Origin: Taishania sp.
GTDB taxonomy: Bacteria > Bacteroidota > Bacteroidia > Flavobacteriales_D > Crocinitomicaceae
Assembly (NCBI GenBank): GCA_030150045.1
Contig: JASLGM010000026.1
Span: forward strand, 37,182-101,181
Reading direction: 5' to 3'
Length of the DNA stretch: 64,000 nucleotides
The notes beneath the pieces were generated by a model. It ran no database searches, was not told the origin of the DNA, and saw nothing but the letters and a program-made list of their open reading frames with translations. Position numbers and translations under genes: made by a program. Positions 10,831 to 63,214 of the stretch are shown here, in pieces (the first letter of the stretch is position 1; each line of letters begins with the position of its first letter).

Positions 10831-10912
10831 GGTTGCAAATAAACAATCCAATAAATAGTGAAATAAAGGAAATAAATTTTATACATGTACTTATTAGAAG
10901 ACCGTAAATCCT

Positions 10913-11219: not shown

Positions 11220-11906
11220 TTATAAATTTTTCACCAATTCGAAGAGTTCTTTTTCGGCAATGAAGCCATCTGTACGGGTTACGAAAACGCCATCTTTGTA
11301 ATATTTCACAACTGGTAATCCGGTAACGCCTTCTTTTTTACACAAGTCTGGATTTTTGTCCGCGTTGATACGAATAACGGTTACGTCTGTTTCTTTGTCT
11401 AATTTTTCTAAGCTAGGAATCATGCGTTTGCACGGCGTACACCAGTCTGCATAAAAGTCAATAACAACAATTTTATCTTTTTTCATTAATTCGGAGTAGT
11501 TTTTCACTTCGTCTGTTTGCGCTTTGTCGTCGGCTACAGGAAGTTCGTTTTTTCTCCAATTCAAGATTCCACCTTCTAGTTCTACGATGTTATATCCTTT
11601 CTCAACCATCATTTTCGCTGCGTCGGCACTACGTCCTCCTCCAAAACAATAGATATAAACCGGTTCAGATTTGTCTAAATGAGACATATCTTCCATGAAA
11701 TTTTTAGACTTGTAATCAATATTGATTGCGCCATCAATTTTACCTTCCTTAAATTCTTCGGGTGTACGTACATCCACTAATTGCACTTTTTTAGCTGTTA
11801 TTTCTTGTTGAAAAGCCAAAGGAGTGACCAACGTTTTTTGAGGTGTTGTTTGTGCACAAGCAGAAAGATAAATGCTAAGGCTAAGTAAAAATATTAATCG
11901 TTTCAT
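11220..11906 (-). CDS. rhodanese-thioredoxin fusion lipoprotein
   Basis: Signal MKRLIFLLSLSIYLSAC. Rhodanese domain with active-site loop IYCFGGGRS, followed by a thioredoxin fold with WCTPCK. The ATG at 11906 is preferred over the TTG at 11927. Confidence 0.85.
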   Translation of the reverse strand: MKRLIFLLSLSIYLSACAQTTPQKTLVTPLAFQQEITAKKVQLVDVRTPEEFKEGKIDGAINIDYKSKNFMEDMSHLDKSEPVYIYCFGGGRSADAAKMMVEKGYNIVELEGGILNWRKNELPVADDKAQTDEVKNYSELMKKDKIVVIDFYADWCTPCKRMIPSLEKLDKETDVTVIRINADKNPDLCKKEGVTGLPVVKYYKDGVFVTRTDGFIAEKELFELVKNL

Positions 11907-14558: not shown

Positions 14559-14581
14559 GTGTGTATTAATGATTTTGCTGT

Positions 14582-17278
14582 TTATTTCAAGACGTTAACT
14601 GAACCCGTATAGACTTCCTTTCCATCATTATTATTGTTTCTAACAGTAGCTTTCCATAAATATTGACCTGAAGGGACAATTTTTCCATTGTAGCTCCCAT
14701 CCCATCCCATTGATGGGTCGAAGGATTCAAAAATCATTTCTCCCCAGCGATTATAAATGGACAAAGAATAATTATATACATCAATTCCTTTAATGCTCAA
14801 TTTCCAGGTGTTGTTATGTTCGTCACCATTAGGAGTGAACGCATTTGGAGCATAAAACAAGATTTGATCTTCTATTTTTAAGTTTAGTGTTAATGTATCA
14901 TTACAACCATAAATAGACGTTACTATTAGTGTAATTGGATATTCGGCTTCTTCGCCCTCCGGATACTTAAAAATAGGATGTTCTAGGATAGATTGGCTAG
15001 GGATTGCACCTGGTGCTAACCATTCCCATGTTACAACATCTTCTGAAGATTTATTATACACAGGTACCGTCGTTTCAAAAATAGATGTGGGGTTATTATT
15101 GAAATTAAAACGTGCCGTTGGAGCAGGGAGGACATGAAAGAAATCTTCAAGTGTTGTCGAATAAACACAACCGAAAATGGATGTGTTTACAACAGTTAAA
15201 GTGTAGGGTCTTGGTGTGAAATATACATGTGAACCGCTGTCTCCATTCATGAAAACATCATTTTTAGTATCACCAAAATCGATGAATGTACTTTTCAATT
15301 CTCCAATGTTTGTAGAGGTATTGGTGAATTCCATTAGCCCCGGAGTACAGTCTTCATTTGATATTAATGTCAATTGGGGAGGGATTGGAGTGGGGAAAGT
15401 AATGTTCATACATGTGTTTACACTTTCAGATGTTCCACAAACTTCGGAAACCGCAACGCAGTATTCAGTGTTCGTTACAGAAGGTTGAACGATTACTTCT
15501 TGAGTTCGCCCTATTTCAACTCCATTTGAAGACCAATAATAAAGGTACTCACTTGAACCTCCTTCAACTGATACAGAAAGTGTGATTGCATTTTCTTGAC
15601 AGATTTGTGTGTCAGGAGTACTTGCAGTAATACTTAAGGGCAAAGGTTCGATTAAAGATTTTGAAATGTTGAAAGGACACCCTTTTGCATCTTTAACTAA
15701 TATATCGTGGATACCCATTTCCAAATCGTTTGCAAAGTCTTCGTTTGCTGCAGTCGCTTGAGGAGAAGTCGTCCATGTGTATGTGTATGGTGCTGTTCCG
15801 TTAGTTGCCAATAGTTTTATTTTTCCATTATCTGCTTTGTGACAAGTAATGTCAGTAAATGATTCTACAATGACATTTAGTGCAGGAATTTCGCTTATTG
15901 TTGCTACCGTTGTTGCTGTGCAGCCATTATTACTAGTGATTTCACAAGTGTAATCTCCTGCAACTAATCCTGTAATGGTTTGAGTGGTTTCTCCATTACT
16001 CCATAAGTACGATTGTGTACCTATTGCTGGTGATATTGTAGCTGTTGCAGTTCCGTCATTTCCATTTCTACAAGAGACCAAAGTTGTGGTGCTTGATGCA
16101 TTTACCGTTTTGTTTTCAACTACAACGGTAGATGTTGCAATACATCCGTCGTCTGTTGTTAATGTTACAGTATATGAACCTTCTGTAAGGTTTGATAAAT
16201 CAGGAGTTGTAGGGGAGCCTGGAGAGCTCCAAGTGTAAGAATATGGCCCCTGACCGTTGTTTACGAATGTTGTAATGGCACCTACACCCTGTCTACAAGT
16301 GTCAGGAACAGCTGTTGCTGTAATTTGACAAGGTTGTATGATTGAACAGTCTGTAGCTCCAGTTGAGCCATTGTTAGAGAATCCGATAGAACCTCTAGCG
16401 CCATCGTAGTTTGTTACTAATAAAACATATACTTCTCCTGGTTGAGCGTTATGGACATTAACTTCTTCTGTTGCAGAAGTAGAGTAGGAACAGTCTACAG
16501 TTTCAGTAAAACGATTAATACTATTGCATCCATCTGCTAAAGTGGGGTATGGGCCATAAAGAGCGAAGTCTACATCAACTGCACGACCTGTATTACTGGT
16601 TTGATGAATGGTTACATTTATGTCCCCTGCATCTTGGACCTCCATGTAAAGCCACATAGCATTTGGAGTTGAGGTTAAACAACTATAACCGCCAAGGTTA
16701 GTACTTTCTATATTACAATAATTGACCTCAGGCATTTCTGTGCAAAAACCTTGTGCTGAATTGCAGTTAGGGTTTTCTCCACCTATGCATTCTTCAGTGG
16801 CTGGGGGAGATGAGGCACAGATACCAAATGTACCTCTATTTGGACTTGATCCATATTTCCAGAATCGGATATATATTTCTTGACCTGGAGTAAGGCCTAA
16901 ACGTGAAATTCGAGGCATAGGATTAACACCTACATTGTCATTGCATTCAATGAGTCTAAAGTTCCCATTACAATTCGGAGCAGTGTAAATAGCCATTGCA
17001 CCATCGACAATACTCCCTGCGAAAGTTATGATAGAGAGCGAACCGTTTGCTGGTACGATTGCTTTATACCAAACATCAGGACCGGAATAGCTACCACAAT
17101 TAGGACGTGGAATCCCTGTGGAATTAGTTGCCCCTTCTGTCGTTCCCAAAATAGGAGAGCAGTTTACACCACTGTTAACAGTAAGTAAAGTTGCGTCACA
17201 AGGATTGTCACCTTGCCCAAAAGTTATGATGGAAAGAAAAGTACACGTAAGAAGTGCGAAAAAAAATCTAAAATTCAT
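14582..17278 (-). CDS. T9SS type-B sorting domain cell-surface protein (SprB-repeat adhesin-like), paralog 1
   Basis: 898 aa with a signal peptide. Two N-terminal Cys-rich modules (GDNPCDA..DVWYK..IECND), SprB-type repeats (CxNGNDG..PYxYxW), a PKD-like module (FGDT..HVY), and a C-terminal gliding-motility CTD FAPNAFTPNGDEHNN..IYNRWGEMIF..WDG..GQY. Confidence 0.92.
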   Translation of the reverse strand: MNFRFFFALLTCTFLSIITFGQGDNPCDATLLTVNSGVNCSPILGTTEGATNSTGIPRPNCGSYSGPDVWYKAIVPANGSLSIITFAGSIVDGAMAIYTAPNCNGNFRLIECNDNVGVNPMPRISRLGLTPGQEIYIRFWKYGSSPNRGTFGICASSPPATEECIGGENPNCNSAQGFCTEMPEVNYCNIESTNLGGYSCLTSTPNAMWLYMEVQDAGDINVTIHQTSNTGRAVDVDFALYGPYPTLADGCNSINRFTETVDCSYSTSATEEVNVHNAQPGEVYVLLVTNYDGARGSIGFSNNGSTGATDCSIIQPCQITATAVPDTCRQGVGAITTFVNNGQGPYSYTWSSPGSPTTPDLSNLTEGSYTVTLTTDDGCIATSTVVVENKTVNASSTTTLVSCRNGNDGTATATISPAIGTQSYLWSNGETTQTITGLVAGDYTCEITSNNGCTATTVATISEIPALNVIVESFTDITCHKADNGKIKLLATNGTAPYTYTWTTSPQATAANEDFANDLEMGIHDILVKDAKGCPFNISKSLIEPLPLSITASTPDTQICQENAITLSVSVEGGSSEYLYYWSSNGVEIGRTQEVIVQPSVTNTEYCVAVSEVCGTSESVNTCMNITFPTPIPPQLTLISNEDCTPGLMEFTNTSTNIGELKSTFIDFGDTKNDVFMNGDSGSHVYFTPRPYTLTVVNTSIFGCVYSTTLEDFFHVLPAPTARFNFNNNPTSIFETTVPVYNKSSEDVVTWEWLAPGAIPSQSILEHPIFKYPEGEEAEYPITLIVTSIYGCNDTLTLNLKIEDQILFYAPNAFTPNGDEHNNTWKLSIKGIDVYNYSLSIYNRWGEMIFESFDPSMGWDGSYNGKIVPSGQYLWKATVRNNNNDGKEVYTGSVNVLK

Positions 17279-17289
17279 TGTAGGATTAA

Positions 17290-17655
17290 TTAATATACAA
17301 AGTAGTTAGAGGAGTATGCTTCAATGGATGAATTTACTTTGTTGATGTGTGTTTTTATATCGATGATTGAAAAAGCACCTTTGGCTTTTGCGGTTAACTT
17401 TGATAAATCTTTAGAAATTTCGAATGAGACAATTCGAGTGTCTGACTGTAAAGATTTTTTTAATAATCTAACAGAGGAATGCTTTAATCCATATAAAATA
17501 ACTTCGTAGTCTGAGTAGACATTTGTAAAGATTGAATGCCCATTTTGTTTGTTCTCATTCATCTTTTGTTGTACTGCTAAAGGCATGTCGATATAGTCCT
17601 GCGAGTAAACTGAATTTGCAAGCAGTGTTATTGTTAAGGCAAAAAATATTTTCAT
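17290..17655 (-). CDS. small secreted protein of unknown function, partner paralog 1
   Basis: 121 aa from the ATG at 17655, with signal MKIFFALTITLLANSVYSQ. Ends 11 nt before the start of the adhesin gene. Paralogous to 20632-20997. Confidence 0.75.
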   Translation of the reverse strand: MKIFFALTITLLANSVYSQDYIDMPLAVQQKMNENKQNGHSIFTNVYSDYEVILYGLKHSSVRLLKKSLQSDTRIVSFEISKDLSKLTAKAKGAFSIIDIKTHINKVNSSIEAYSSNYFVY

Positions 17656-17874
17656 TAAAGGCAATTAAAAGGGTGTTAAGTTCAGTAAAAAGAAGAGAAT
17701 AATACAAGGAATAGTCGAAGTACGTAAAAAAAAATAATTCAATGGTAGTAGTCCTAAGGTGATTTCTTTTGTTTATATAGTAGGAGAAGTACCTAGATAG
17801 TGTTTTGTTCAGTAGTTATTTAATAATAATAAAAAGGAAATTTTTATTACTGTTATTATTGGTATGCTATAAAT

Positions 17875-17902
17875 GAAAAAAGCCGATCATATTTGATCGG
17901 CT
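17875..17902 (-). terminator. intrinsic terminator of T9SS paralog 2
   Basis: AGCCGATCA..TGATCGGCT plus a T-run on the minus strand. The same stem sequence recurs at 21209-21238. Confidence 0.8.
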
Positions 17903-17921
17903 TTTGTTTGAGAAGACTTGT

Positions 17922-20621
17922 TTATTTTAAGATGTTAAGTGATCCTGTGAAAACTTCTTTTCCATCATTATTCTTATTTCTGATCGTTGCTTTCCAAGAA
18001 TACTGACCACTTGGAACGAGTTTTCCATTATATGTTCCATCCCATCCCATGGAAGGATCAAAGGATTCAAATACCATTTCTCCCCAGCGGTTGTAGATCG
18101 ATAAAGAGTAATTGTAAATGTCAATTCCTTTAATACTCAACTTCCAAATGTTGTTAAATTCATCTCCATTAGGAGTAAATGAGTTAGGAGCAAAGAACAA
18201 TATTTGATCTTCAATTTTTAAGTTTAATGTTAAAGTGTCAGTACAACCATAAATTGAAGTTACAACAAGTGTAACTGGGAATTCTGCCTCATCACCTTCA
18301 GGGAATTTAAAAATAGGATTTTCTAAATTTGATTGACTAGGTACAGCTCCAGGAACTGTCCATTGCCATTGAATAACATCTTCTGTTGATTTATTATAAA
18401 CTGGTACTGTAGTTTCAAAAACAGAAGTAGGGTTTGTACTGAAATTGAAACGTGCCGTTGGAGCAGGTAATACTTTGAAGAAATCTTCTAACACAGTGGA
18501 ATATACGCAACCAAATACAGATGTGTTAACTACTGTTAGTGTATAGTCTCTCGGTGTAATGTATACATGAGAACCGCTATCTCCGTTTAAGAAAATGTCA
18601 TTTTTTGTATCACCGAAATCGATGTAAGTACTTTCTAATTCACCAATATTAGGAGAAGTATTTGTGAATTCCATCAAACCTGGCGTACATTCTTCATAAG
18701 ATTTCAATGTCAGCTGAGGAGGAATTGGAGTTGGAAAGGTGATTGTTATGCATGTTTTTACACTATCTGATGTTCCACATGCTTCTGTTACCGCAACACA
18801 ATATTCTGTGTTTGTTATTGTAGGATCTACAACTATTTCTTGCGTGTTACCAATTTCAATACCGTTTGATGACCAATTGTAGATATAATCGCTTGAACCA
18901 CCTTCAACTGTTACAGTTAGTGAAGCTGTATTTTCAGGGCAAATCTGAGTATCTGGAGTACTAGCAACGATGCGTAATGGTAATGGCTCATCTAAAGTTT
19001 GAGAAATGGTAAATTCACATCCATTTGCATCCACGATTAAAACATCATGGTCACCAACTGATAAGTCATCAGCAAAATTTTGGTTTGCGGCTGTAGCACT
19101 AGGAGAGGTTGCCCAAGTGTAGGTATACGGTGCTGTCCCATTTGTTGTAAGTAATTGTACTTTACCATCATTACCTTTATTACAAGAAACATCAGTAAAT
19201 GAATTTACAATAACATTTATTGAAGGGATTTCACTAACTGTGGCAACTGCTGTGGCTGTACATCCATTACTACTTGTTATTTCACATGTATAGTCCCCTG
19301 CTGTTAAACCAGTAATTGTTTGTGTTGTTTCGCCATTGCTCCATAAATAAGACTGTGTGCCATTTGCAGGACTTATTGTTGCAGTAGCTGTTCCGTCATT
19401 TCCATTTAAACAAGAAATTAATGTTGTGGAACTTGATGCGGTAACAGTTTCATTTCCTACTACAACAGTTGAAGTAGAGGTGCATCCGTCATCTGTTGTC
19501 ATTGTTACAGAATATGAACCAGGTACAAGGTTTGCAATGTCCGCAGTTGTTGGGTTACCAGCTGAACTCCAAGCATACGTATAAGGTGCTAATCCATGGG
19601 TGATTTCCGTTGTTACTGCACCAACACCTTGTGCACAAGTGTCAGGAATTGCAGTAGCAATAATTTGACAAGGTTGGATGATGGAACAATCTGTTGCACC
19701 TGTTGAACCATTGTTTGAAAAACCGATAGAACCTTGTGCTCCATTGTAATTTGTTACCAATAACACATAAACTTGACCAGGCTGAGCATTAGGGACATTT
19801 ACTTCTTCAGTTGCTGAAGATGAATAAGAACAGTCTACAGTTGGAGTGCTAGGGTTTATTGTACCACAGCCGTCAGCTAAATTAGTATAAGGTCCATAGA
19901 GCGCGAAGTCAACGTCGATTGCACGACCTGTATCGCTTGTTTGATGAATGGTTACGTTAATATCCCCAGCGTCTTCAACTTGCATGTACAACCACATCGC
20001 GTTAGGTGTTGACCCTAAACAACTATATCGACCAAGATTTGAACTTTGAATATTACAATAGTTAACCTCTGGCATTTCTGTACAGAAACCTTGTGCCGAG
20101 TTACAGTCAGGATTATCACCACCTATGCATTCATCTGGTGGTACTGGTGAATTAGCACAAATTGAAAAAGTACCTCTTGTTGATGAAGAACCATATTTCC
20201 AAACGCGAATGTAAATCTCTTGACCAGGAGTTAGTCCAGAGCGTTCAATTAAAGGCATTAATCCAGTGCCTCCATCGTCATTACATTCTATTAATGTAAA
20301 ATTTCCGCTACAACTAGGTGCTGAATAAATTGCCATTCCTCCATCTGTAATAGTACCTTCAAATGTGGAAACTCTCAACGTCCCAGTTGGAGGAACTATT
20401 ACCTTATACCAAACATCGGGTCCAGAATAACTCGCACAACCTGGAGCTGGAATGTTTGGGGTGTTTGTTGCACCAACTGTGGTCCCCGCAATTCTAGTAC
20501 AAGCAGACCCATTGGCTACAGTTAAAACTTGTGCGTCACAAGGATTATCTCCTTGACTATAAGAAGATGTTATGGCAAACAATGTGGATGCTACGAATGT
20601 GAAAATTGATCTAAGATTCAT
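17922..20621 (-). CDS. T9SS type-B sorting domain cell-surface protein, paralog 2
   Basis: Collinear with 14582-17278 over its full length, with most aligned residues identical by eye. The start at MNLRSIFTFVAS (ATG at 20621) avoids overlap with the small upstream gene. Confidence 0.92.
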   Translation of the reverse strand: MNLRSIFTFVASTLFAITSSYSQGDNPCDAQVLTVANGSACTRIAGTTVGATNTPNIPAPGCASYSGPDVWYKVIVPPTGTLRVSTFEGTITDGGMAIYSAPSCSGNFTLIECNDDGGTGLMPLIERSGLTPGQEIYIRVWKYGSSSTRGTFSICANSPVPPDECIGGDNPDCNSAQGFCTEMPEVNYCNIQSSNLGRYSCLGSTPNAMWLYMQVEDAGDINVTIHQTSDTGRAIDVDFALYGPYTNLADGCGTINPSTPTVDCSYSSSATEEVNVPNAQPGQVYVLLVTNYNGAQGSIGFSNNGSTGATDCSIIQPCQIIATAIPDTCAQGVGAVTTEITHGLAPYTYAWSSAGNPTTADIANLVPGSYSVTMTTDDGCTSTSTVVVGNETVTASSSTTLISCLNGNDGTATATISPANGTQSYLWSNGETTQTITGLTAGDYTCEITSSNGCTATAVATVSEIPSINVIVNSFTDVSCNKGNDGKVQLLTTNGTAPYTYTWATSPSATAANQNFADDLSVGDHDVLIVDANGCEFTISQTLDEPLPLRIVASTPDTQICPENTASLTVTVEGGSSDYIYNWSSNGIEIGNTQEIVVDPTITNTEYCVAVTEACGTSDSVKTCITITFPTPIPPQLTLKSYEECTPGLMEFTNTSPNIGELESTYIDFGDTKNDIFLNGDSGSHVYITPRDYTLTVVNTSVFGCVYSTVLEDFFKVLPAPTARFNFSTNPTSVFETTVPVYNKSTEDVIQWQWTVPGAVPSQSNLENPIFKFPEGDEAEFPVTLVVTSIYGCTDTLTLNLKIEDQILFFAPNSFTPNGDEFNNIWKLSIKGIDIYNYSLSIYNRWGEMVFESFDPSMGWDGTYNGKLVPSGQYSWKATIRNKNNDGKEVFTGSLNILK

Positions 20622-20631
20622 AGTGTATGTT

Positions 20632-20997
20632 TTAATAGACAAAGTAGTTTGTTGTGTAGTTCTCAATAGAAGCTCCGCTTGGAGCAGTAATCAATTTCAT
20701 GTCCTTTATTGTAAAAGCCCCTTTTGCTTTAACAATTAGTTTGGAATAGTTATTCGTTACTTCAAATGATACAATTCTAGTGTCATTTTGAAGAGAATTT
20801 TTTAAAGGATTTATTGATGTTTGATTTAAACCGTACAATGTAATCTCGTAGTTAGAATATACATCAGTAAATATTGGAAGATTATTTTGTTTGTTCAAGT
20901 CCATTTTTTGTTGGACAGCTAAGGGCATGTCATTATAGTCTTGCGAAAAGGAATGGTTTGCAAGTAGTACTAATGTTAAGGCAAATATCAATTTCAT
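20632..20997 (-). CDS. small secreted protein of unknown function, partner paralog 2
   Basis: 121 aa with signal MKLIFALTLVLLANHSFSQ. Shares DMPLAVQQKM, TRIVSFE, KAKGAF and NYFVY with 17290-17655. Confidence 0.75.
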   Translation of the reverse strand: MKLIFALTLVLLANHSFSQDYNDMPLAVQQKMDLNKQNNLPIFTDVYSNYEITLYGLNQTSINPLKNSLQNDTRIVSFEVTNNYSKLIVKAKGAFTIKDMKLITAPSGASIENYTTNYFVY

Positions 20998-21208
20998 AAT
21001 AGTTTATTAAAACTTGGTTAATATCAGAATATAGACTGAATTTAATTGAAAAGGTTGCCATAGATGAAGGGAATTAATTGTGATATTTAGGAATCCTATA
21101 AGTGTTTTTTTTGGGACGTGAGGATAATCGTTTTATGATAACATGGGATTTATCTACGTGTTTGGTGGCTTTTTGAAGAGGGAGACTTGTTTATCATTGG
21201 AATGCTGT

Positions 21209-21238
21209 AAAAAAAAAGCCGATCAATTTTGATCGGCT
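21209..21238 (-). terminator. intrinsic terminator of T9SS paralog 3
   Basis: AGCCGATCA..TGATCGGCT plus a T-run on the minus strand. Confidence 0.8.
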
Positions 21239-21256
21239 CATATAGAAAAAAAGGTG

Positions 21257-23968
21257 TTATCTCAAGACGTTTACATAACCGCTGTATGTACTTCTGCCTT
21301 CATTGTTTTTGTTTTTAACTTGTGCTTTCCATGAATATTGACCTGTTTGAACTGGTTTACCATTGTAATTACCATCCCATCCAATAGCAGGGTCATTTGT
21401 TTCAAAAATTGCTTCTCCCCATCGGTTATATACAACTAGATTGAAATTATATATATCTGCACCTTTCAAAGAAAATTTCCAACTGTTATTAATTTCATCT
21501 CCATTAGGAGTAAATGCATTTGGTGCAAAGAAAAGGATATCATCTTCAATTCTTAAATCTAAAGTTAAAGTATCTGTACAGCCTAATTGAGAAGTTACAA
21601 TTAATGTTACTGGAAAGACTCCTTCTTCTCCTTCTGGGTAAGTAAAGATTGGGTTCTGTGCAGAAGAAGTACTCGGAGTAGCTCCTGGTGCAGACCATTG
21701 CCAATTGATTACATCCTCAGTTGATTTATCATAAGTTGGAACAGTTGTTTCGAAAACAGATGTGGGATTGTTATTGAAGTTAAAACGTGCTGTAGGAGGT
21801 GTAATTGCTCTGAAAAATTCATCAAATACTTGTGTGTAAACACATCCGTAGATTGAAGTGTTTGAAACGGTTAACGTATAGTTCCCTTGAAAAAGATACT
21901 CATGTGAACCACCAGCTCCATTTAAAAAGTTTTCATTTTTAGTATCTCCGAAGTCAATATAAGTAGATACTAATTCACTTTGATTTGGAGAGTCGTTGTT
22001 GAACATTAACATTGCAGGTAAACAATCCTCGTATGCTGTTGCTGACAATTGTGGTGGAATTGGAGTAGGAAAGGTAATAACCATACAAGATGATGTCATA
22101 GCTGATGATCCACACTCTTCTGTTAATTCTAAACAATATTGTGTATTCGTTGTTGTGGGATCTACTGTAATTGATGAAGTAGAGCCAATCAATTGGTTAT
22201 TTGAATACCAGTTGAAAATGTAAGGGCTTGATCCACCAGCTCCAGTTGCATTCAATTGCAGTTGGTCTTCAGGACATATTTGTGTGTCTGGAGTGATTTG
22301 TGAAATAGATAAAGGTTGTGGTTCACTAATAACTTGTGAAATAGTTTGTGTACAACCATTAGCATCTGTTACTAAAATAACATGAGTGTCTGCGATTAAG
22401 TCAAGAGCTGATGCACTATTTGAAGCTGTTCCAGAAGGAGAGTTACTCCATGTGTATGTGTATGGAGCTGTTCCGTTTGTCGTTGATAAGTAAATAGTAC
22501 CATCTGCTGCTCGGTTACAAGTTGCATCGGTGAAGCTATCTATAGTAACAGTCATTGGTGTAATTTCTGATACAGTAACTGTCGCTACGCCTGAACAGCC
22601 AACTGTTGAAGTTATGGTGCAAGAATGTGAGCCTGCTGTTAAACCTGTTGCAGTTTGTGTTGTTTGACCATCGTCCCATAAATAAGAAATCGTGCCGAGT
22701 GCAGGTGTCATGACAGCGGTAGCAGTTCCATCTGCCCCATTAGAGCAACTAACAAGTGTAGAGGTGGCTGTGAAAGCAGCAGTTTGATTAGGGACAATTG
22801 CTGTAGCGACTCCTGTACAGCCATTCAAATCTCTTACTTGAACCTGATGAGAACCAGCTAATACGTTGTTTACTGTTGCAGTTGTAGCTCCTAAACTAGG
22901 CCAGTTATAAGTGTAGTTTCCTTGACCACCAGCTGCGCTTACGGTAACTGAACCACTTGATGAATTACAGATATCGGTTGTGGTAGTTGTTTGCAAACTT
23001 AGATTGCCAACAGTAATCCATGATGTATCTCCTGTATATGCCGTGCTCGAATTACAAGCTGTAGAAGAGTAAGAAATATAATAACCAAAACGACCTATTG
23101 TATTGTTAGATAAGTTTAACACACCGTTGTTATAAGGAAAAGTCTGACCATTTGTAGAACGCCAAATTAATGAAGTTGGATCGTTTCTACGGATAGTCTT
23201 CATTGGAATTTGTGATGATGTATATGTGTTTGTGTTTGATGGAGAGGAGGGGGCAAATAAACGTGCGTCGTTTGTTGCGGTCCATTGCGAATTATTTCTC
23301 CCTGTAATGATTATAGCTTGATTACCGGCTGCATTTTGTAATCCTTGTGTTGCACGACCGCCATTCCAACCTGTGTTGATTGATTTTTGTGAAATATGAA
23401 ACTCAATCTCATTTGTAGATTCATGAAATGAAGCAGCCATGTAATTACAATCTGGGGCACTAAACATCTGAATATTCTCGTACACGACATAAAATACTCT
23501 GTTTGGAGCAACACCTAAAGTTTGATAGTAGATACGACCACCATTTGATGGATTGATATCTTGATAACAAAGCATTGCCGTGTTTTTTGCAGTTGTGAAT
23601 GAAGTTGATGGAAAAGTTGTAACTGATCCTGTACTCCATTCACATGATCCACCTGCTCTTGAAGTTTCAAAAGAAATTAATCCATTTGATCCAATTACCG
23701 CTTGCGTGTAGTTTTGACCATAAAAATTAAATGTAAATCCAATTGAAACAGCAGCAGACCAACGGTCATCTGTTAAAGTCACGTAGCTTGGATTGTTTAG
23801 AACTATGGTTCCGCCTGTTACATTGGTTAATGCATCACATACATCGATACGTACAGGTTGGTTAATGCAAACAAGTGAATCTTCACCCACGCATAGTTGT
23901 TGACTGAATACATTACCTTGCGTCGCTAAAAGAAGAAGGAGCATGTAAGCGTTTTTTAACAGTTTCAT
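21257..23968 (-). CDS. T9SS type-B sorting domain cell-surface protein, paralog 3 (different N-terminal head)
   Basis: 903 aa. The C-terminal ~570 aa (SprB repeats, PKD-like module, CTD) are collinear with paralogs 1 and 2. The N-terminal ~330 aa are unrelated and may be NIDO-like (FNFYGQNYTQAVIGSNGLISF). Confidence 0.9.
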   Translation of the reverse strand: MKLLKNAYMLLLLLATQGNVFSQQLCVGEDSLVCINQPVRIDVCDALTNVTGGTIVLNNPSYVTLTDDRWSAAVSIGFTFNFYGQNYTQAVIGSNGLISFETSRAGGSCEWSTGSVTTFPSTSFTTAKNTAMLCYQDINPSNGGRIYYQTLGVAPNRVFYVVYENIQMFSAPDCNYMAASFHESTNEIEFHISQKSINTGWNGGRATQGLQNAAGNQAIIITGRNNSQWTATNDARLFAPSSPSNTNTYTSSQIPMKTIRRNDPTSLIWRSTNGQTFPYNNGVLNLSNNTIGRFGYYISYSSTACNSSTAYTGDTSWITVGNLSLQTTTTTDICNSSSGSVTVSAAGGQGNYTYNWPSLGATTATVNNVLAGSHQVQVRDLNGCTGVATAIVPNQTAAFTATSTLVSCSNGADGTATAVMTPALGTISYLWDDGQTTQTATGLTAGSHSCTITSTVGCSGVATVTVSEITPMTVTIDSFTDATCNRAADGTIYLSTTNGTAPYTYTWSNSPSGTASNSASALDLIADTHVILVTDANGCTQTISQVISEPQPLSISQITPDTQICPEDQLQLNATGAGGSSPYIFNWYSNNQLIGSTSSITVDPTTTNTQYCLELTEECGSSAMTSSCMVITFPTPIPPQLSATAYEDCLPAMLMFNNDSPNQSELVSTYIDFGDTKNENFLNGAGGSHEYLFQGNYTLTVSNTSIYGCVYTQVFDEFFRAITPPTARFNFNNNPTSVFETTVPTYDKSTEDVINWQWSAPGATPSTSSAQNPIFTYPEGEEGVFPVTLIVTSQLGCTDTLTLDLRIEDDILFFAPNAFTPNGDEINNSWKFSLKGADIYNFNLVVYNRWGEAIFETNDPAIGWDGNYNGKPVQTGQYSWKAQVKNKNNEGRSTYSGYVNVLR

Positions 23969-26289: not shown

Positions 26290-26433
26290 GGCTGCCATTT
26301 CCGTCTACAGGCTTTAGTAGCTTGCCAAAAACAGGTTAGCTAATTGTTCTGAAACGCTCCTAAAGTCGCCTTTCCTCACAAAGCAAACTTTCTGTTTTTT
26401 TGCAAGCCAGCTATCACCCTCCGCCGGGGCAGG
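26290..26433 (+). repeat. Rep-A copy 2 (variant core)
   Basis: Canonical ends GGCTGCCATTTCCGTCTACAGGCTTTAGTA and AGCTATCACCCTCCGCCGGGGCAGG. The outer stem GCTTGCCAAAAACAG/CTGTTTTTTTGCAAGC is retained, but the central loop is degenerate. Confidence 0.8.
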
Positions 26434-26483
26434 GGATCCATTTTTATTAAAGAAATGATTTTATAAGTGGAGATTTTTCTTTT

Positions 26484-26630
26484 CAGCCCGGGCAAAGCAC
26501 GATAGCTAAAGGAACTGAAAAAGGAGTGAATCCTGCATTTAGTACTGCGACCAAAGGAAGCACGTACTAAAGCAGATAGAGAACCCTTTTTTCAGGAGTT
26601 TACTAAAGGGCGGAGACCGTTAAGGCTGCC
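26484..26630 (-). repeat. Rep-A copy 3
   Basis: The reverse complement reads GGCAGCCTTAACGGTCT..CTTTAGTAAA..TAGTAC(G)TGC-TTCCTTTGGTC-GCAGTACTA..CTTTAGCTATC..CCCGGGCTG. Confidence 0.9.
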
Positions 26631-31838: not shown

Positions 31839-31983
31839 GGCATCCATTTCGGTCTACAGGCTTTAGTAAAATCGTGAACAAAGGGTTTGCTGTAAGTCGG
31901 TCACGAGCTTCCGCTGGTCGCTGTGGCCAACCAACAGAAACCTCTTTTTCACTTCTTTTAGCTATCGCCTTTCACCCGGGCTG
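31839..31983 (+). repeat. Rep-A copy 4
   Basis: GGCATCCATTTCGGTCTACAGGCTTTAGTAAA..TCAC(G)AGC-TTCCGCTGGTC-GCTGTGG..TTTAGCTATCGCCTTTCACCCGGGCTG. Confidence 0.9.
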
Positions 31984-32093: not shown

Positions 32094-32162
32094 CAGCCCG
32101 GCCTGAGTGAAGCTCTTTTGACGCAGGAAAAAAGCGGGAACGGAGGACGGATTAAGCTGCCC
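32094..32162 (-). repeat. Rep-A copy 5 (69-nt mini form, ends only)
   Basis: The reverse complement reads GGCAGCTTAATCCGTCC....GGCCGGGCTG. It faces copy 4 across about 110 nt of AT-rich spacer. Confidence 0.6.
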
Positions 32163-41883: not shown

Positions 41884-41994
41884 GGGCGTTACCTTGCCAA
41901 ATACTTGGCAAGGTCAGGCTTTTCGTTACTAGTCCGCTTTATCCCCAAAAAAAAATGGGAATAAATGCGGGCTATTCACTGCAATCCTTAACGC
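41884..41994 (-). repeat. Rep-B copy 2
   Basis: The reverse complement reads GCGTTAAGGATTGCAGTGAATAGC, hairpin, ACTAGTAACGAAAAGCCTGAC, CCTTGCCAA-GTAT-TTGGCAAGG, TAACGCCC. Confidence 0.9.
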
Positions 41995-42178
41995 GGAAAT
42001 CTCTGTTTCCAAAAATAAATCGATAGAAATGTGAACAAATTTCAATCAAATAAGCAAGAAACGTTTCCTTTAATTAACCGATTTATAGCGTAAAAATCAA
42101 AAAAGAAAGACATCTTATTGTCAGAATATCTTTTTTACATACATTCGAGAAAATTATTGCATCTGATTACAGTGAACT

Positions 42179-44893: not shown

Positions 44894-45143
44894 TTCGAAA
44901 AAAAAATAGGGTTAATAACTCTTTGTATGTACACAAAAATAACGCTTAATAAAGACCTGGAAAAACTTTTCAATGCCTATAAACGCCCCATTTTTCACAA
45001 CAATTCTTAAAATTCTAAAGGAAAGTTAAAATGTCAATCCTTTGTCCTATTTTCTCCCGAAAAAGTTCTCGAAAAATTAGCCTCATTCTTTCAATAATAG
45101 ATGTTGAGGAGTCCAAATACAGCTTTTGATTAGATTATTTTTT

Positions 45144-45285
45144 GCAGCCTTAACGGTCTTTGTGCTTTAGTCAAGTCGTGCACCGTAAGTGCTGCACTTT
45201 AGCCAGCGAGCTTCCATTGGTCGCTGCTACCAAAAGGCATTACTAACGCCGCACTTCCTTGAGCTATCGCACGCCGCCCTGGCTG
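45144..45285 (+). repeat. Rep-A copy 6 (subfamily with an extra hairpin)
   Basis: GCAGCCTTAACGGTCTTTGTGCTTTAGTC..GC(G)AGC-TTCCATTGGTC-GCTGC..GAGCTATCGCACGCCGCCCTGGCTG. Differs at 8 of 142 positions from the copy at 47227-47368. Confidence 0.9.
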
Positions 45286-45440
45286 GGGAATCCCAGTGAG
45301 AATATAAGATTCCGTTAAAAGTGAAAGTATTTCTGACTACTTTTTCAAAACCAATTTCAAGCAATTATTCTTAATAAAGAATATTGAAACTCAACGAAGT
45401 GTTTATATTCAAATCCTTATGTAAACGATTTTTTGATAAA

Positions 45441-45594
45441 CAGATCTTCCAGCCCGGGGGAAGTTTCGGTAGCTAAACGTACGTAATACGTTGTGAACCT
45501 TAGTTTTGCGCTGCGACCAACGGAAGCACGTGCAAAGCTGTAGGTGAACACGTTTTTAGAAGTTTACTAAAGAACGTACACCGAAATGGCTGCC
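45441..45594 (-). repeat. Rep-A copy 7
   Basis: The reverse complement reads GGCAGCCATTTCGGTGTACG..TTTAGTAAA..TTTGCAC(G)TGC-TTCCGTTGGTC-GCAGCGCAAA..TTTAGCTACCGAAAC..CCCGGGCTGGAAGATCTG. Confidence 0.9.
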
Positions 45595-45791: not shown

Positions 45792-47162
45792 ATGAAAAGA
45801 AAAATGATCATGTTCGGTGCTTTGATGATGGCATCGACGGTACTTGCAAGTTGCAATGGAAATTCCATGGAAAATGACGCTAAAGAATTGGCTGGAGTGC
45901 TTTGTAAAGTAAATGAATTGTCACAAAAGGCAGCCGAATCTGCTGACGTATCTTTAGGTGCAGAAGCGAGTGCTTTAATGGTAGAAGCCGCAAATTTGTC
46001 CAAAAAAATGGAGGATAAATACCGAATGGGAGAGGACAAAGTGAAATTCTTTGAGCTGTTAAACATCGAGCAAGCTAAATGTGTGAATGCGATGACGAAT
46101 CCCATATCAAATACGGGGAATCAAACAGAGGAAACGGCAACTCAAAGCACGCAAAGCTCACAGAATAATGATAAAATCCCGACAATAAAGGCAACTGGCG
46201 GGCAAGGGAAAAATGTAAATTGGCCAGCGATTAAAGCAGAAGCTGAAAAAAATGACGGTCCCGAATTTTTTTACAACGGATGTGAGCAAGGAGTAACGCC
46301 TCTTCGTGCTTCCTCTACGTTGGCAGGACAAGGCGCTAAAAGTTATGGTGTCAAAAACCTTTATGATTTCAACCCGATGACGGCGTGGGTAGAAGGAAAA
46401 GAAGATTACGGAATTGGTGAATCCTTCGAAATTAAAGGCGAAGGGGTGAATCATATTTATAATGGCTATCAATCTTCACCTAAAACTTGGGCGGATAATT
46501 CGAGGGTAAAAATCTTTAAAGTATACAAAAATAATGTCCCTCTTTGCTTTTTGGAATTGAAAGACGAAATGGGACAACAGTATTTTGAACTTCCTGATCA
46601 CAACACGGATCAAGTCAAAGCAAATACGTATAAATTCGAAATCGTGGAAGTGTATCCAGGAGCAAAATGGAAAGATGTAGCCATCTCTGAAATTGGATAT
46701 TCTCTGTGTTGTTTTTCAAGCTCAACGCTGATCAGTACTAAATTAACTGCTCAAAGCATCACCAACCTTAAAGAAGGAAACGAAATCTATTCCGTGGACA
46801 TCAATAATGGGAAAGTGACGAGCGCGCAAGTGTTGAAAACTACGAAACAAACCCACTTAAGCTTATTGCAAATAGCGTGTGAAAATTCAAAAATTGAAGT
46901 GACAAGTGATCATCCATTATACATCAAGGATCAAGGGTTTATGTCCGTTGCGCGTTATATGCGAATCAAAAATATTGAGAACTATGCTGATTTAGTAGGG
47001 AAAATCGAATTCATGGTTTGGAACGAAAAAACGCAAAGTTTGGTGTACGAAAAATTACAATCTATTTCCCTTATTACAGGTGAATTTGATACGTACAGTA
47101 TTTCTAAATTGAAAGAAGGAAGTACGTTCATTGCAAATGGATTCGTGACGAAAACGTACTAA
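45792..47162 (+). CDS. lipoprotein with a glycan-binding-like middle domain and a C-terminal Hint (Hedgehog/intein-like) domain
   Basis: 456 aa with lipobox VLASC. The middle domain has NLYDFNPMTAWVEGKEDYGIGESFEI...DVAISEI. The Hint blocks follow: CCFSSSTLIS (block A Cys), IEVTSDHPLY (TxxH block B) and STFIANGFVTKTY (block F/G without the terminal HN). The protein stops 3 residues later. Confidence 0.85.
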   Translation: MKRKMIMFGALMMASTVLASCNGNSMENDAKELAGVLCKVNELSQKAAESADVSLGAEASALMVEAANLSKKMEDKYRMGEDKVKFFELLNIEQAKCVNAMTNPISNTGNQTEETATQSTQSSQNNDKIPTIKATGGQGKNVNWPAIKAEAEKNDGPEFFYNGCEQGVTPLRASSTLAGQGAKSYGVKNLYDFNPMTAWVEGKEDYGIGESFEIKGEGVNHIYNGYQSSPKTWADNSRVKIFKVYKNNVPLCFLELKDEMGQQYFELPDHNTDQVKANTYKFEIVEVYPGAKWKDVAISEIGYSLCCFSSSTLISTKLTAQSITNLKEGNEIYSVDINNGKVTSAQVLKTTKQTHLSLLQIACENSKIEVTSDHPLYIKDQGFMSVARYMRIKNIENYADLVGKIEFMVWNEKTQSLVYEKLQSISLITGEFDTYSISKLKEGSTFIANGFVTKTY

Positions 47163-47224: not shown

Positions 47225-47226
47225 GG

Positions 47227-47368
47227 GTAGCCTTAACGGTCTTTGTGCTTTAGTCAAGTCGTGCACCGTAAGTCCTGTACTTTAGCCAGCGAGCTTCCGT
47301 TGGTCGCTGCTACCAAAAGGCATTACTAACGTCGCACTTCCTTGAGCTATTGCACGCCGCCCTAGCTG
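47227..47368 (+). repeat. Rep-A copy 8 (same subfamily as copy 6)
   Basis: GTAGCCTTAACGGTCTTTGTGCTTTAGTC..TTCCGTTGGTC..GAGCTATTGCACGCCGCCCTAGCTG. Confidence 0.9.
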
Positions 47369-50101: not shown

Positions 50102-50304
50102 TAATCTAGGCTTTTCTATGATTCGAAAAGCAAAAAAGGCGATATGGTATTTATGCGGATAACAAAAAAGTAATTTAGTAAACTAATTCGTTGGTAAAGT
50201 TAATTCAATAAATATGATTTCATAAATATTATCATCTTAAATGTATGGTGATAAAGGATTAATCTTGAATTCCAATAAAATCTATGTTTTGAAAATCAAT
50301 TTTC

Positions 50305-50409
50305 GCGTGAAGGATAGGAGTGAAAAGCCCACAGGGGATACACAATTTATTGGGTAGAGCCGAGGACTTGTAGCGGATAGCCTGACCCCAATGCCTTGGG
50401 GGCACGCCC
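50305..50409 (+). repeat. Rep-B copy 3
   Basis: GCGTGAAGGATAGGAGTGAAAAGCC..ACTTGTAGCGGATAGCCTGAC-CCCCAA-TGCC-TTGGGG-GCACGCCC. The closing helix is GCGTG/CACGC. Confidence 0.85.
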
Positions 50410-54927: not shown

Positions 54928-55036
54928 GGGCGTTACCCAACCCTTTGTCAAAAAAAGAGGAAGGTTGGGTCGGGCTTTTCGTTACAATCTTTTTGTTCGT
55001 TCCTCCAAAAAGGATTTTCTCTGCAATCCCTAACGC
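54928..55036 (-). repeat. Rep-B copy 4
   Basis: The reverse complement reads GCGTTAGGGATTGCAGAGAAAATCC..GTAACGAAAAGCCCGAC-CCAACC..GGTTGG-GTAACGCCC. Confidence 0.85.
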
Positions 55037-55048
55037 AAACTGGAAAAA

Positions 55049-55897
55049 CTAACGATTTACATTCTCTCGAACAAAATCATATTTTTCTTTGCGTTTGAAT
55101 AAGGTGTATTCTTCAATATATGGCGCGTTTGGAATAAAACCATAATACTGTGATCCAGAATGATTGTATAAATAAATGTCATAGATTTGATAAAGGTTGG
55201 ATCCAATTTTACCTTCAAAATAAGCCTTGTCAATATACGGTAGGATGAATTCCCATGTGATATTTATTTTACTAGGAAAAGCGAGTGCTTTTTCAATTAA
55301 TAAATCTAATTCTCCCATGGAGATCCCTAAATCCAATTGATTAGGGAGGGTGTTATTGTTCATTTTTGCAATTTCTACTATTTTGACAATTAATTCAAAA
55401 TGTTGATTCCATGAATTAGGATTGATGAGCTCATTGTTGTTTATAACTTCTGATTTATTCTTTAATTGTTTGATGACGTTGGAAACTGAGTAGGAAAAAT
55501 AATTGTTTTGAATCCATTGTGGATGGTAGATCAAAGATTGCTCAATCATCCAATTTTGTAGATTGTTTTCATAGACTAATTGGTTGATATAGTAAAATCG
55601 ATTTTGAATTATAGTATCATTGAAGGTATAGAAATAACCATGGTTTTTCATTAGATCGATGATTTCACCTTTAAACGTTTCAATGTGTTGATTTTTTAAT
55701 AAAAAATACGAGAAATAAAGCGTATGATCTGGTAATAGTATTCTGTCTTCGGAAGACTTTACTTCCTTATAATATGCAAATTGATTATCGAAAGAGGCAT
55801 TCATATCAATAAGTACAATTTTTTTATGCGGTTGTGCATCGTATTGCCCTAATAGAATAAAGGGCAATGAGAAAATTAGTAGTAATCTTGATTTCAT
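55049..55897 (-). CDS. hypothetical secreted protein
   Basis: 282 aa with a signal peptide, rich in N, Y and I, and no recognisable motif. Confidence 0.6.
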   Translation of the reverse strand: MKSRLLLIFSLPFILLGQYDAQPHKKIVLIDMNASFDNQFAYYKEVKSSEDRILLPDHTLYFSYFLLKNQHIETFKGEIIDLMKNHGYFYTFNDTIIQNRFYYINQLVYENNLQNWMIEQSLIYHPQWIQNNYFSYSVSNVIKQLKNKSEVINNNELINPNSWNQHFELIVKIVEIAKMNNNTLPNQLDLGISMGELDLLIEKALAFPSKINITWEFILPYIDKAYFEGKIGSNLYQIYDIYLYNHSGSQYYGFIPNAPYIEEYTLFKRKEKYDFVRENVNR

Positions 55898-55996
55898 ATA
55901 CTAAAAGTAATTTTTTTTTGAATATTATATTTCCCTTCTATTGTATAAAAGAATTGAATTGATAAAACGATAAATTTTAGTGGCTGCCAATCACTT

Positions 55997-56164
55997 GCGT
56001 TAGGGATTGCAGCGGTTAGCTCTCTTGCGGTTCATTTTTTTGAAAGAAGTGTACGAACTAAATTATTATTTTTTTTTGGGAGAAAAGATGCAAGAGACTA
56101 GTAACGAAAAGCCCGCCCCGTTTTACTTTCCGAGAGAAAGGAGGAGGTAAAACGGGGAACGCCC
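55997..56164 (+). repeat. Rep-B copy 5 (long first hairpin)
   Basis: GCGTTAGGGATTGCAGCGGTTAGC, TCTCTTGC..GCAAGAGA, CTAGTAACGAAAAGCCCGC, CCCGTTTTAC..GTAAAACGGG, GAACGCCC. It is preceded by a GGCTGCC fragment. Confidence 0.85.
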
Positions 56165-58361: not shown

Positions 58362-58985
58362 GTTTAACGAAACAACACATCAACAAATTATTATCTATCC
58401 TTAATCTTAAGGAAACACGAATTAACACTTTGGTAAAACGATTTAGCTAAATGCTTGTTATCTTTGTTGTGTATGAAAATCGTAAAGGAAATAATGCGCG
58501 GAGCAGGACAAAAACGGAAGGAAACGAATCAAATTGATGTTCAAGAAGTGATTTCCATTCCTTTTTTCTTTCAACTACAGCGATGCCAGCCCTTTTGTTT
58601 GAATCCTTTTACCGCCAATTTCTTATCGCGATTTTCCTTTCCCCGAATTTCTTATTCAAAAATAGTAGAACCTACTCTACCTTTAGTTAACAGCCAAGAT
58701 CACACCGTTGTCGTATTTCACAAGAATATTTACTTAAAACGTAAAGCATTCCTTGTCGTTCAAAGCCTTCTACTTTTACAATTAACCTCGTTCTATAAGC
58801 GGTTCAAAAAGCAAACGAGCTTACCCGAAACGCAAAATAGGTTATAGTTTAAATCAGCACTGCATCCGTTTTTTCAAGTGTCATCACAAAGAAACACCCT
58901 TGACAATTACCAAATAGATTATCCGTCAAAATGCAGTGAACAATACGACAGCGACTTGGTTTTCTTATGCTTACATTTCTTTTTT

Positions 58986-59138
58986 GGCGTCCATTTCGGT
59001 CTACACGCTTAAGTGAAGCCTAATAAAAACGGTTCACCAGCTGTTTACCACGTGCTTCCGTTGGTCGCAGTGGTAACCTAGCGTTCACACGCTTTTATTA
59101 GGCTCCAGCTATCACGTTTCGACCGGGCCGAAGATCTC
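58986..59138 (+). repeat. Rep-A copy 9
   Basis: GGCGTCCATTTCGGTCTACACGCTTAAGTG-AGCCTAATAAAA..TTACCAC(G)TGC-TTCCGTTGGTC-GCAGTGGTAA..TTTTATTAGGCT-CCAGCTATCACGTTTCGACCGGGCCGAAGATCTC. Confidence 0.92.
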
Positions 59139-59209
59139 ACGAATCAATCAAACGTTCGGTACAAGTGGAGCTTTAATTTACCAAGATTGTTTATCTGAAA
59201 ACAATATTT

Positions 59210-59332
59210 GCGCTAAGGATAGTAGTGGATAGCCCGGAGTTCCTCCCCAACGCATTGGGGAGGAACGAGGACTAAGAACGAATAGCCTGACCCAAGTGCC
59301 TGACCGGAAGGAAAGGTACGCAGGGTAGCGCC
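59210..59332 (+). repeat. Rep-B copy 6
   Basis: GCGCTAAGGATAGTAGTGGATAGC, GTTCCTCCCCA-ACGCAT-TGGGGAGGAAC, ACTAAGAACGAATAGCCTGAC, second hairpin, TAGCGCC. The closing helix is GCGCTA/TAGCGC. Confidence 0.92.
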
Positions 59333-62936: not shown

Positions 62937-63082
62937 GGCAGCCCATTCGGTCTACGCGTTTTAGTAAAGTTGTAAAATGCCATTCACACACCTGTTGGCA
63001 ACGTGCTTCCTTTGGTCGCAGTTGCCAAATGGTGTTCATAGGCTTTTTACTTCCTTTAGCTATCACCGCTCCGCCCTGGCTG
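62937..63082 (+). repeat. Rep-A copy 10
   Basis: GGCAGCCCATTCGGTCTACGCGTTTTAGTAAA..TTGGCAAC(G)TGC-TTCCTTTGGTC-GCAGTTGCCAA..CTTTAGCTATCACCGCTCCGCCCTGGCTG. It starts right after a 10-nt T-run. Confidence 0.92.
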
Positions 63083-63107
63083 AACTGATTCTTGAAAACG
63101 GATTCTC

Positions 63108-63214
63108 GCGTTAGGGATAAAAGCGGCATCCTTCTTCTCCAAGTAAACTTGGGGGAGAAGATATAGCGAATAGCCCGACGCCTTACTCAAGACTTTGAGG
63201 AAGGAGAAACGCCC
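63108..63214 (+). repeat. Rep-B copy 7
   Basis: GCGTTAGGGATAAAAGCGGCATCC, TCTTCTCC..GGAGAAGA, TATAGCGAATAGCCCGAC, CCTTACTCAA-GAC-TTGAGGAAGG, AGAAACGCCC. Confidence 0.9.

Follow-up and report, generated by a model that had tools for sequence, protein, structure and literature searches.

The intergenic repeat element Rep-A, which recurs along a 64,000-nt stretch of Taishania sp. DNA (contig JASLGM010000026.1; the whole stretch is referred to below as the window), is, judging from sequence comparison, a local and divergent long-form subfamily of the RNA motif Flavo-1 (RF01705) that is missed by the curated Rfam model. Flavo-1 was described by Weinberg et al. (2010; PMC2864571) and has been an orphan motif since then. 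The analyses reported here characterize it as a Bacteroidota-wide, multi-copy, strictly intergenic hairpin repeat, similar to repetitive extragenic palindromic (REP) and enterobacterial repetitive intergenic consensus (ERIC) elements in lifestyle, not in sequence. An earlier note on this DNA had described Rep-A correctly in outline, with two details overstated (a loop and bulged base kept in every copy, and GTTCAC pairs beside the central hairpin). It had also left Rep-A without assignment to a named RNA family, which no longer stands, since homologs of Rep-A match RF01705 above its gathering score and the alignment published in 2010 contains the same apical loop.

Assignment of Rep-A to the Flavo-1 family

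A covariance model, R1, was built solely from the nine full-length Rep-A copies of the window and was run with filters off; its E-values are rough. On the window it returned exactly those nine copies, with 94-143 bits. The Rfam comparison proposed in the earlier note gave a divided result: RF01705 (gathering score 42 bits) did not match any window copy of Rep-A, whether the whole window was searched at E ≤ 5 or the surroundings of the focal copy at E ≤ 10, and homologs in other genomes scored above the gathering score. At gathering and E-value thresholds no Rfam family matched Rep-A itself in the window, and a tRNA and tmRNA scan of the window found nothing.

Scanning one genome per species for the apical core of the element gave at least 96 loci, mostly in Flavobacterium and some in other Bacteroidota. 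Among the matches listed, to which all locus counts in this paragraph refer, the core lies inside a rod of the same size and layout as Rep-A. R1 matched over its full length, with 28-78 bits, in 60 Bacteroidota loci, compared with 10-21 bits, mostly at model positions 59-82 alone, in 27 non-Bacteroidota loci; the similarity therefore extends well beyond the fishing sequence, and the 27 non-Bacteroidota loci have nothing but the 20-nt core in common with Rep-A, by chance. Family matches were distributed over Flavobacterium, Crocinitomicaceae, Cryomorpha, Cytophagaceae, and Bacteroidales, in keeping with the taxonomic range of Flavo-1 (Bacteroidetes, mainly Flavobacteria), and the search across Flavobacteriia suggested in the earlier note yielded R1 homologs in dozens of Flavobacterium and other Bacteroidota genomes.

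R1 and RF01705, the latter at or above its gathering score, coincided in coordinates and strand at 8 of the 18 loci tested, and additionally at L073. Long forms in L073, L092, L049, L041, L001, L017, L008, L064, and L067 scored 44-54 bits with RF01705, these matches carrying a 66-67-nt insertion in the apical loop, and the same elements gave full-length R1 matches of 41-78 bits on the same strand. A long Flavobacterium psychrophilum member (NC_009613.1/1376902-1377443), whose variable apical region reads ...AGCGACCAACGGAA...GCU, is already present in the alignment that Weinberg et al. (2010; PMC2864571) gave as a supplement. The coincidence of the two models and this long member are therefore the basis on which Rep-A is placed as a divergent long-form Flavo-1 subfamily.

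Rep-A and Flavo-1 occur in the same phylum and on the same strand, and both form a rod with a large internal loop, the two strands of which appear to bear similar GA-rich motifs. The apical part of Flavo-1 varies in length, its long members have the identical apical GCGACCAACGGAAGC, and the family is multi-copy, with 128 copies in F. psychrophilum (PMC9723704 supplement). Rep-A differs from the Flavobacterium consensus in an extra helix (AGGC/GCCU) within the large internal loop, in the closing helix CAGCC/GGCUG, and in the motif CGAAA(U)GGC, which replaces GGAAAGC; the internal-loop motif thus reads CGAAAGGC / CCGAAAUGGC in the window versus GGAAAGC in Flavobacterium, with the architecture and the two-strand repetition kept. 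In the window, Rep-A coexists with classic short Flavo-1 copies as a separate subfamily.

The 5' arm of the window type gave nothing in a first metagenome scan and three loci in a second, none significant with R1, so the window-type subfamily was not found elsewhere in these two scans. Nothing in phage or plasmid collections matched a Flavobacterium long form. The nearest MutS2 relatives of the window organism in the protein collection are Flavobacteriaceae, with 68% identity. Where short reads of the same organism were assembled independently, the resulting contig (L097, Logan contig ERR11479721_5201) stops at either end in a Rep-A copy (positions 1-83 and 11701-11767), in both cases exactly within the invariant GCGACC apical core. 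Assemblies are fragmented by this repeat.

Rep-A copies in the window

The copies are listed below with the strand that folds better, which is the Rfam orientation of Flavo-1.
58986-59130, minus strand: focal Rep-A, long-form Flavo-1-type rod (R1 131.4 bits; complement strand -63.3 kcal/mol, z = -5.85)
10676-10820, minus strand: Rep-A copy (R1 137.1 bits)
26290-26432, minus strand: Rep-A copy with degenerate apical loop (R1 93.7 bits; loop motif absent)
26484-26630, plus strand: Rep-A copy, inverted partner of 26290 (R1 143.4 bits)
31839-31983, minus strand: Rep-A copy directly after an intrinsic-terminator hairpin, T-tract common to both (R1 142.6 bits)
32094-32161, plus strand: mini form, outer stems kept, apical part missing (R1 6.6 bits, E ~9; weak evidence)
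45143-45285, minus strand: Rep-A copy, 93% identical to 47226 (R1 133.2 bits; repeat family D5)
45450-45594, plus strand: Rep-A copy, inverted partner of 45143 (R1 133.6 bits)
47226-47368, minus strand: Rep-A copy directly after a terminator hairpin, T-tract common to both (R1 131.2 bits)
62937-63082, minus strand: Rep-A copy with a stop codon 27 nt before it (R1 139.5 bits)

The ten copies previously claimed are thus nine full copies, each ~145 nt long, and one weakly matching mini form, whose ends GGGCAGC...GGCCGGGCTG are recognizable in the sequence. The core CGWGCTTCCNYTGGTCGCWG occurs 8 times in the window versus 0 expected (100 shuffles), and a repeat search recovered the shared 5' arm in seven plus-strand copies and in inverted copies. 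Every copy lies between open reading frames (ORFs) of ≥80 aa, and the GC content of Rep-A (0.48-0.58) compares with 0.26-0.39 in the 150-nt flanks and 0.365 in the whole window, both as the earlier note had described. Mean column identity among the window copies is 69%.

The copies at 45143-45285 and 47226-47368, which are 2 kb apart, in the same orientation, and 93% identical, unlike the remaining copies, lie on either side of a gene (45792-47162) encoding a protein with a NADase_transloc / F5/8 type C domain. This arrangement looks like a local duplication or the insertion of a gene between copies.

Folding, covariation, and conserved loops

RNAalifold predicted a single rod spanning the whole element in the window copies, with 35-38 pairs, 24 of which had changed on both sides; the stems drift freely in sequence yet remain paired. 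When 79 distinct family members were aligned to R1, an alignment fitted to the structure of the model, 86.5% of cells were paired versus 60.1% in shuffles, and 39 of the 44 pairs had changed on both sides. The covariation score was 0.559, versus at most 0.129 when the 3' partners were slid, and one position (W/W') covaried strictly, being A-U in 64 copies and U-A in 13. The compensatory change in the stems around fixed single-stranded motifs, proposed from ten copies, is therefore real and much stronger with more sequences. It is found both within the family and between orthologous copies of different species (see below), and selection on a folded single strand, not recent amplification of a miniature inverted-repeat transposable element (MITE), is therefore the right reading.

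The single-stranded patches fixed in the family are the apical GCGACCAAMGGAAGC and the GAAAG(G)C-type motifs, which recur on each of the two strands of the large internal loop. The focal copy's apical hairpin, found by pattern match, is given here.
59051-59070, minus strand: apical hairpin of the focal copy; columns invariant in 77-79 of 79 family members
It reads CGTGC-TTCCGTTGGTC-GCAG on the plus strand and CUGC-GACCAACGGAA-GCACG on the folding strand, with a bulged base and two C-G pairs inside the loop. The loop and the bulged G, which had been ascribed to every copy, are kept in 8 of 10, the loop of 26290 being degenerate and the mini form having no apical part; the GTTCAC pair said to flank the hairpin is exact in three copies only.

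The strand had been left open. It is no longer fully so: the strand in the Rfam orientation, which is the complement of the plus-strand layout first described, has the lower minimum free energy in 9/9 window copies (mean difference -9.2 kcal/mol) and is favored in 53 of 66 other copies (Wilcoxon p = 6e-8). In the window copies this strand has 22 G-U cells versus 4 A-C cells. Two observations count against it: outside the window the G-U excess is small (90 versus 71 A-C), and one conserved position of the wider family is U-G on the strand first described and C-A on the other. The assignment of the better-folding strand to the Rfam orientation is therefore good but not absolute. There is no replication-strand bias, the better-folding strand lying on the plus strand in 8 and on the minus strand in 9 family members, with GC skew positive throughout the window.

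Age of the copies and selection in place

An orthologous copy is present 125-127 nt upstream of the same gene in eight Flavobacterium species; from its N-terminal sequence we take this gene to be carboxymuconolactone-decarboxylase/AhpD-like. In an alignment of seven orthologous copies, divergence was 0.076 in unpaired and 0.11 in paired columns, and the third codon positions of the neighboring gene diverged by 0.28, that is, 2.5-4 times as much. Eight pairs had changed on both sides between orthologs, for example CUCCAAAGCCUGA / UCAGGCUUUGGAG versus CCGCAAGCCCUUA / UAAGGGCUUGCGG, with G-U intermediates mostly on the Rfam strand. Two further syntenic groups comprise five and four species. The low divergence together with the compensatory change therefore excludes a young MITE and shows maintenance of the fold in place, and the alignments show that the copies are old, vertically inherited, and under purifying selection where they sit.

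At several of these loci (L025, L052, L074, L004, L055, and others), the 50-250 nt lying 5' of the orthologous element cannot be aligned between species and contain other short repeats or palindromes, such as GTTCCTCGAAATGACAA and CTTTGTCAAAGTTTGAAACTTTGACAAAG. Moreover, in the Flavobacterium loci L004, L058, L081, L096, and L077 a small perfect palindrome, TCCCGATAGCTATCGGGA or TCCCGAAGCTTCGGGA, replaces or interrupts part of the rod, and looks like a second, nested REP-like repeat family.

Short Flavo-1 copies and inverted doublets

In addition to Rep-A, the window contains Flavo-1 copies of short or intermediate length, seven in all, of which two exceed the RF01705 gathering score and five fall short of it.
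63103-63184, plus strand: short Flavo-1, forming an inverted pair with Rep-A 62937 (RF01705 48.7 bits, exceeding the gathering score)
59207-59296, plus strand: short Flavo-1-like, forming an inverted pair with the focal Rep-A (RF01705 30.3 bits, short of the gathering score)
10904-10998, plus strand: short Flavo-1-like, inverted partner of Rep-A 10676 (RF01705 39.3 bits; weak R1 match too)
54964-55045, minus strand: short Flavo-1 (RF01705 52.5 bits)
41908-42002, minus strand: short Flavo-1-like (RF01705 35.3 bits)
50300-50391, plus strand: short Flavo-1-like (RF01705 29 bits)
55992-56122, plus strand: Flavo-1-like, intermediate length (RF01705 28.8 bits)

Rep-A and Flavo-1 together amount to 17 family members in 64 kb, about one per 4 kb, with short, intermediate, long, and mini size classes side by side. 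Three of the short elements lie 20-80 nt from a Rep-A copy. All six adjacent pairs in the window have the identical inverted arrangement, with spacers of 20-155 nt and with the A/T-tract ends outward, because the A-tract end points toward the nearest gene. The gene at 55049-55897, inside an inverted Flavo-1 pair, was considered as a transposase and rejected: its 282-aa product had no Pfam or NCBIfam match and nothing transposase-like, and by eye its translation begins with a signal-peptide-like N-terminus.

Flanks and neighboring genes

The run of T residues noted earlier beside Rep-A is real and is found family-wide.
58976-58985, plus strand: T-tract abutting the focal element, seen as an A-tract on its 3' side when the folding strand is read
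In 78 copies read on the Rfam strand, the frequency of A is 0.6-0.72 at positions +2 to +8 downstream of the element, and the other side of the element in these copies has no A/T signal. The A-tract end points at the nearest gene, which is convergent in 34 of 56 scorable copies and co-directional in the other 22, and in ~14 of the 56 a stop codon lies within 12 nt of it. In 11 of 72 copies the T-tract is common to the element and a terminator-like hairpin, versus 0/72 on the opposite side; clear cases in the window are copies 31839 and 47226. Among 13 co-directional copies examined, three (L065, L079, and window copy 45450) have a promoter-like TAnnTTTG box between the element and the start codon, and a role in the 5' untranslated region (UTR) is therefore disfavored for these three.

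The near-identical copies with target-site duplications (TSDs) that the earlier note associated with a plain young MITE were not found: the nine window copies have no consistent flanking direct repeat, and only one pair reaches the 93% identity given above. Nor did the co-distributed gene that it had suggested looking for (Y1/RAYT transposase, nuclease, or RNA-binding protein) emerge, as nothing besides orthologs recurs near copies at 69 loci.

A short palindrome follows five Rep-A copies on the flank opposite the T-tract (10821-10830, 59131-59138, 45441-45449, 26433-26440, and 45286-45295); three of the five have AGATCT or AGATCTC/G, another has GGATCC, and the remaining one GGGAATCCC. A strong hairpin between A and T runs at 10610-10650 (AAATCCTGTGATC...GATTACAGGATTTTT) resembles a bidirectional terminator and lies ~25 nt away from Rep-A 10676. 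Elsewhere in the window (14579-23968), there are three tandem units of ~3.34 kb, 69-79% identical to each other, each comprising a ~900-aa protein and an upstream small ORF of ~120 aa; the one large protein scanned contains SprB repeats and a CHU_C type IX secretion signal.

Transcription in F. psychrophilum

In the F. psychrophilum transcriptome study, 128 Flavo-1 copies were predicted with Rfam, and the authors did not count them as bona fide RNAs, the matches being sense or antisense to transcribed regions or outside them (PMC9723704). The 5' UTRs of alaS and ftsY were annotated there with the element on the opposite strand (PMC9723704). We sampled 13 Flavo-1 features from the array table of that study (PMC9723704). 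Seven of them belong to one common expression cluster, their own-strand signal rising in late stationary phase and on agar, like that of tRNA; four have no own-strand signal, and in five the opposite strand is transcribed. The shared profile may reflect cross-hybridization between copies, and the array evidence is compatible with an RNA form of the element and does not establish it.

Proposed origin and role

We propose, as about an even prospect, that Rep-A/Flavo-1 is a REP/ERIC-like dispersed intergenic hairpin that shows its conserved loops to a putative protein. Copies would have originated as duplicative insertions directly 3' of oligo-T tracts; in the mechanism envisaged, no duplication is left behind and the hairpin is read on one strand, in the manner of single-stranded DNA (ssDNA) systems of the HUH type. 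They would be retained as the folded single strand could serve as a platform for this protein, which is probably dimeric because the same motif occurs on both strands of the internal loop. The folded strand might become accessible at the RNA level, through read-through or antisense transcription, or transiently as ssDNA, and the element would not be a gene with a promoter and terminator of its own. We consider it unlikely, though worth stating, that Flavo-1/Rep-A, instead of being a junk repeat, is the nucleic-acid half of a phylum-wide, host-maintained system, in which hundreds of rods per genome would each show the same two-fold-symmetric internal loop and apical loop to a putative dimeric protein, act as a global post-transcriptional network or in a chromosome-level ssDNA function, and exist as short and long subfamilies matched, inside a single genome, to different protein variants. 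We know of no well-characterized global RNA chaperone like Hfq, ProQ, or CsrA in Bacteroidota.

Several points weigh against the proposed dispersed hairpin, in addition to the two concerning the strand. No mobilizing protein was found in the 64-kb window or in the 8-kb loci of other genomes, the neighbors of the copies are ordinary housekeeping genes, and ORF clustering near 69 family loci recovered only recurring ortholog groups. The nearest relative has 68% MutS2 identity, which puts presence or absence of individual copies beyond comparison, and mobility is therefore inferred. A host function accounts better than a purely selfish element for the purifying selection seen at orthologous sites, and in the array data transcription varies with the locus, affecting either strand or neither. 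The REPs of the Bacteroidetes subclass 2.6 of REP-associated tyrosine transposases (RAYTs) are different short hairpins (PMC6006769 Table S1). As to sampling, the copies from other genomes were collected by the exact apical core and are a biased sample of long forms, and fitting the 79-copy alignment to the structure of the model inflates its pairing; its covariation result is consistent with the slid controls and with what MAFFT/RNAalifold gave independently. Part of the compensatory pattern might be mimicked by gene conversion or by quasi-palindrome correction; the latter could add to the pairing and would not explain the conserved loops.

Among the alternatives, the original Rfam label implies that each copy is a small RNA gene of its own, transcribed in the Rfam orientation and acting in trans or by sequestering a protein. 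Covariation, strand asymmetry, and purifying selection in place are all compatible with this, as are the recurrence of an A-N-GGA-A-G motif in apical and internal loops of Flavobacterium copies and the tRNA-like rise of 7/13 F. psychrophilum features in one expression cluster. Nevertheless, doublet spacers of 20-155 nt leave too little room for two divergent promoters, the Rfam strand has an A-tract and not a hairpin-plus-U terminator after the element, the array profile may be cross-hybridization, 4/13 features have no own-strand signal, 5/13 have the opposite strand transcribed, as at the alaS and ftsY 5' UTRs, and in 3/13 co-directional copies the TAnnTTTG box lies between element and start codon; separate RNA genes therefore seem to us rather doubtful. 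Somewhat less probable still is a cis-acting RNA device, either a terminator or insulator against read-through or a stabilizer of the upstream mRNA 3' end. It would account for the adjacency of the A/T-tract end to stop codons and terminators, and between convergent genes read-through from either side would meet the best-folding copy just before the opposite gene. However, neither strand has the U-tract after the hairpin that defines an intrinsic terminator, the upstream mRNA would contain the less stable strand, 22/56 copies lie upstream of a co-directional gene, and the neighboring genes have unrelated functions.

The remaining alternatives concern known classes of mobile element. A recently amplified MITE with terminal inverted repeats, mobilized by a DDE transposase, matches the size, intergenic location, and rod shape of Rep-A, its ends (a short CAGCC/GGCTG inverted repeat), and the one 93% identical pair of copies, but it is already largely refuted and very improbable given the mean column identity of 69%, the lack of TSDs, the copies syntenic across 5-8 species with compensatory changes in place, and a transposase neither present in the window nor recurring near copies. 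We give an equally small chance to a retroposon resembling short interspersed elements, whose A-tailed transcript in the Rfam orientation would be reverse-transcribed into T-tracts: the A-tract directly 3' of the better-folding strand in 78 copies and the location of copies at T-tracts are as expected, but there are no TSDs, the tract is short and conserved between orthologs, in at least 5-6 copies it is the pre-existing U-tract of a terminator, and no reverse transcriptase was seen near copies. Most remote of all are integron attC-like recombination sites folded as ssDNA; although structure kept while sequence drifts, strand-specific folding, an extrahelical base, and a size in the attC range recall them, their defining features are lacking, as the stem base is CAGCC/GGCUG with no R''/R' core sites (RYYYAAC...GTTRRRY), the copies do not form a single-orientation array around promoterless cassettes, housekeeping genes flank them on both strands, and no integrase was seen.

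Comparison with other repeat systems

ERIC elements (also termed intergenic repeat units, IRU) of Enterobacteriaceae are 127-bp imperfect palindromes. Like Rep-A, they are 100-150 nt long, strictly intergenic, and found in either orientation, they include old copies with pairing preserved, and they form size variants by internal insertions or deletions; we know of no transposase for ERIC, as for Rep-A. The two have no sequence relation and occur in different phyla, and ERIC has neither an invariant apical loop nor a one-sided A/T tract. REPs, with the related bacterial interspersed mosaic elements (BIMEs) and REP doublets forming hairpins (REPINs), which go with RAYTs, are likewise dispersed extragenic palindromes, often in inverted pairs, with a hairpin recognized on one strand, no TSD, and vertical persistence. 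In contrast to the 145-nt Rep-A, REPs are 20-40 nt long with a GT[AG]G foot, and Rep-A doublets are unlike these elements in having heterogeneous partners and unrelated spacers. No Y1 transposase was seen near any copy in the 64-kb window or the 8-kb loci of other genomes. A link to RAYT subclass 2.6 was considered and rejected, the foot and hairpin of Rep-A being unlike the REPs listed for it (PMC6006769 Table S1). Palindrome-associated transposable elements (PATEs) derived from IS200/IS605 also insert 3' of a short specific sequence without duplication and rely on strand-specific hairpin recognition. They differ in having separate left-end and right-end hairpins, whereas the covariation of Rep-A describes one rod with its 5' half paired to its 3' half, and in that the Rep-A family has no orientation bias relative to GC skew (plus 8, minus 9).

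Significance

Flavo-1 appears in listings as a candidate small RNA, and the one transcriptome study that encountered it left it aside despite its 128 copies. The present analysis adds a Bacteroidota-wide long form whose apical loop is invariant, divergent subfamilies that escape Rfam in some lineages, so that copy numbers are underestimated, and a density reaching one element per ~4 kb. It further adds purifying selection in place, a defined better-folding strand, and a defined polarity toward gene ends. In practical terms, these repeats break short-read assemblies and could be taken for riboswitch-like leaders. The significance of the finding lies in clues to the nature of Flavo-1, not in a new class of element, and its features together make the family a tractable target for finding the binding protein.

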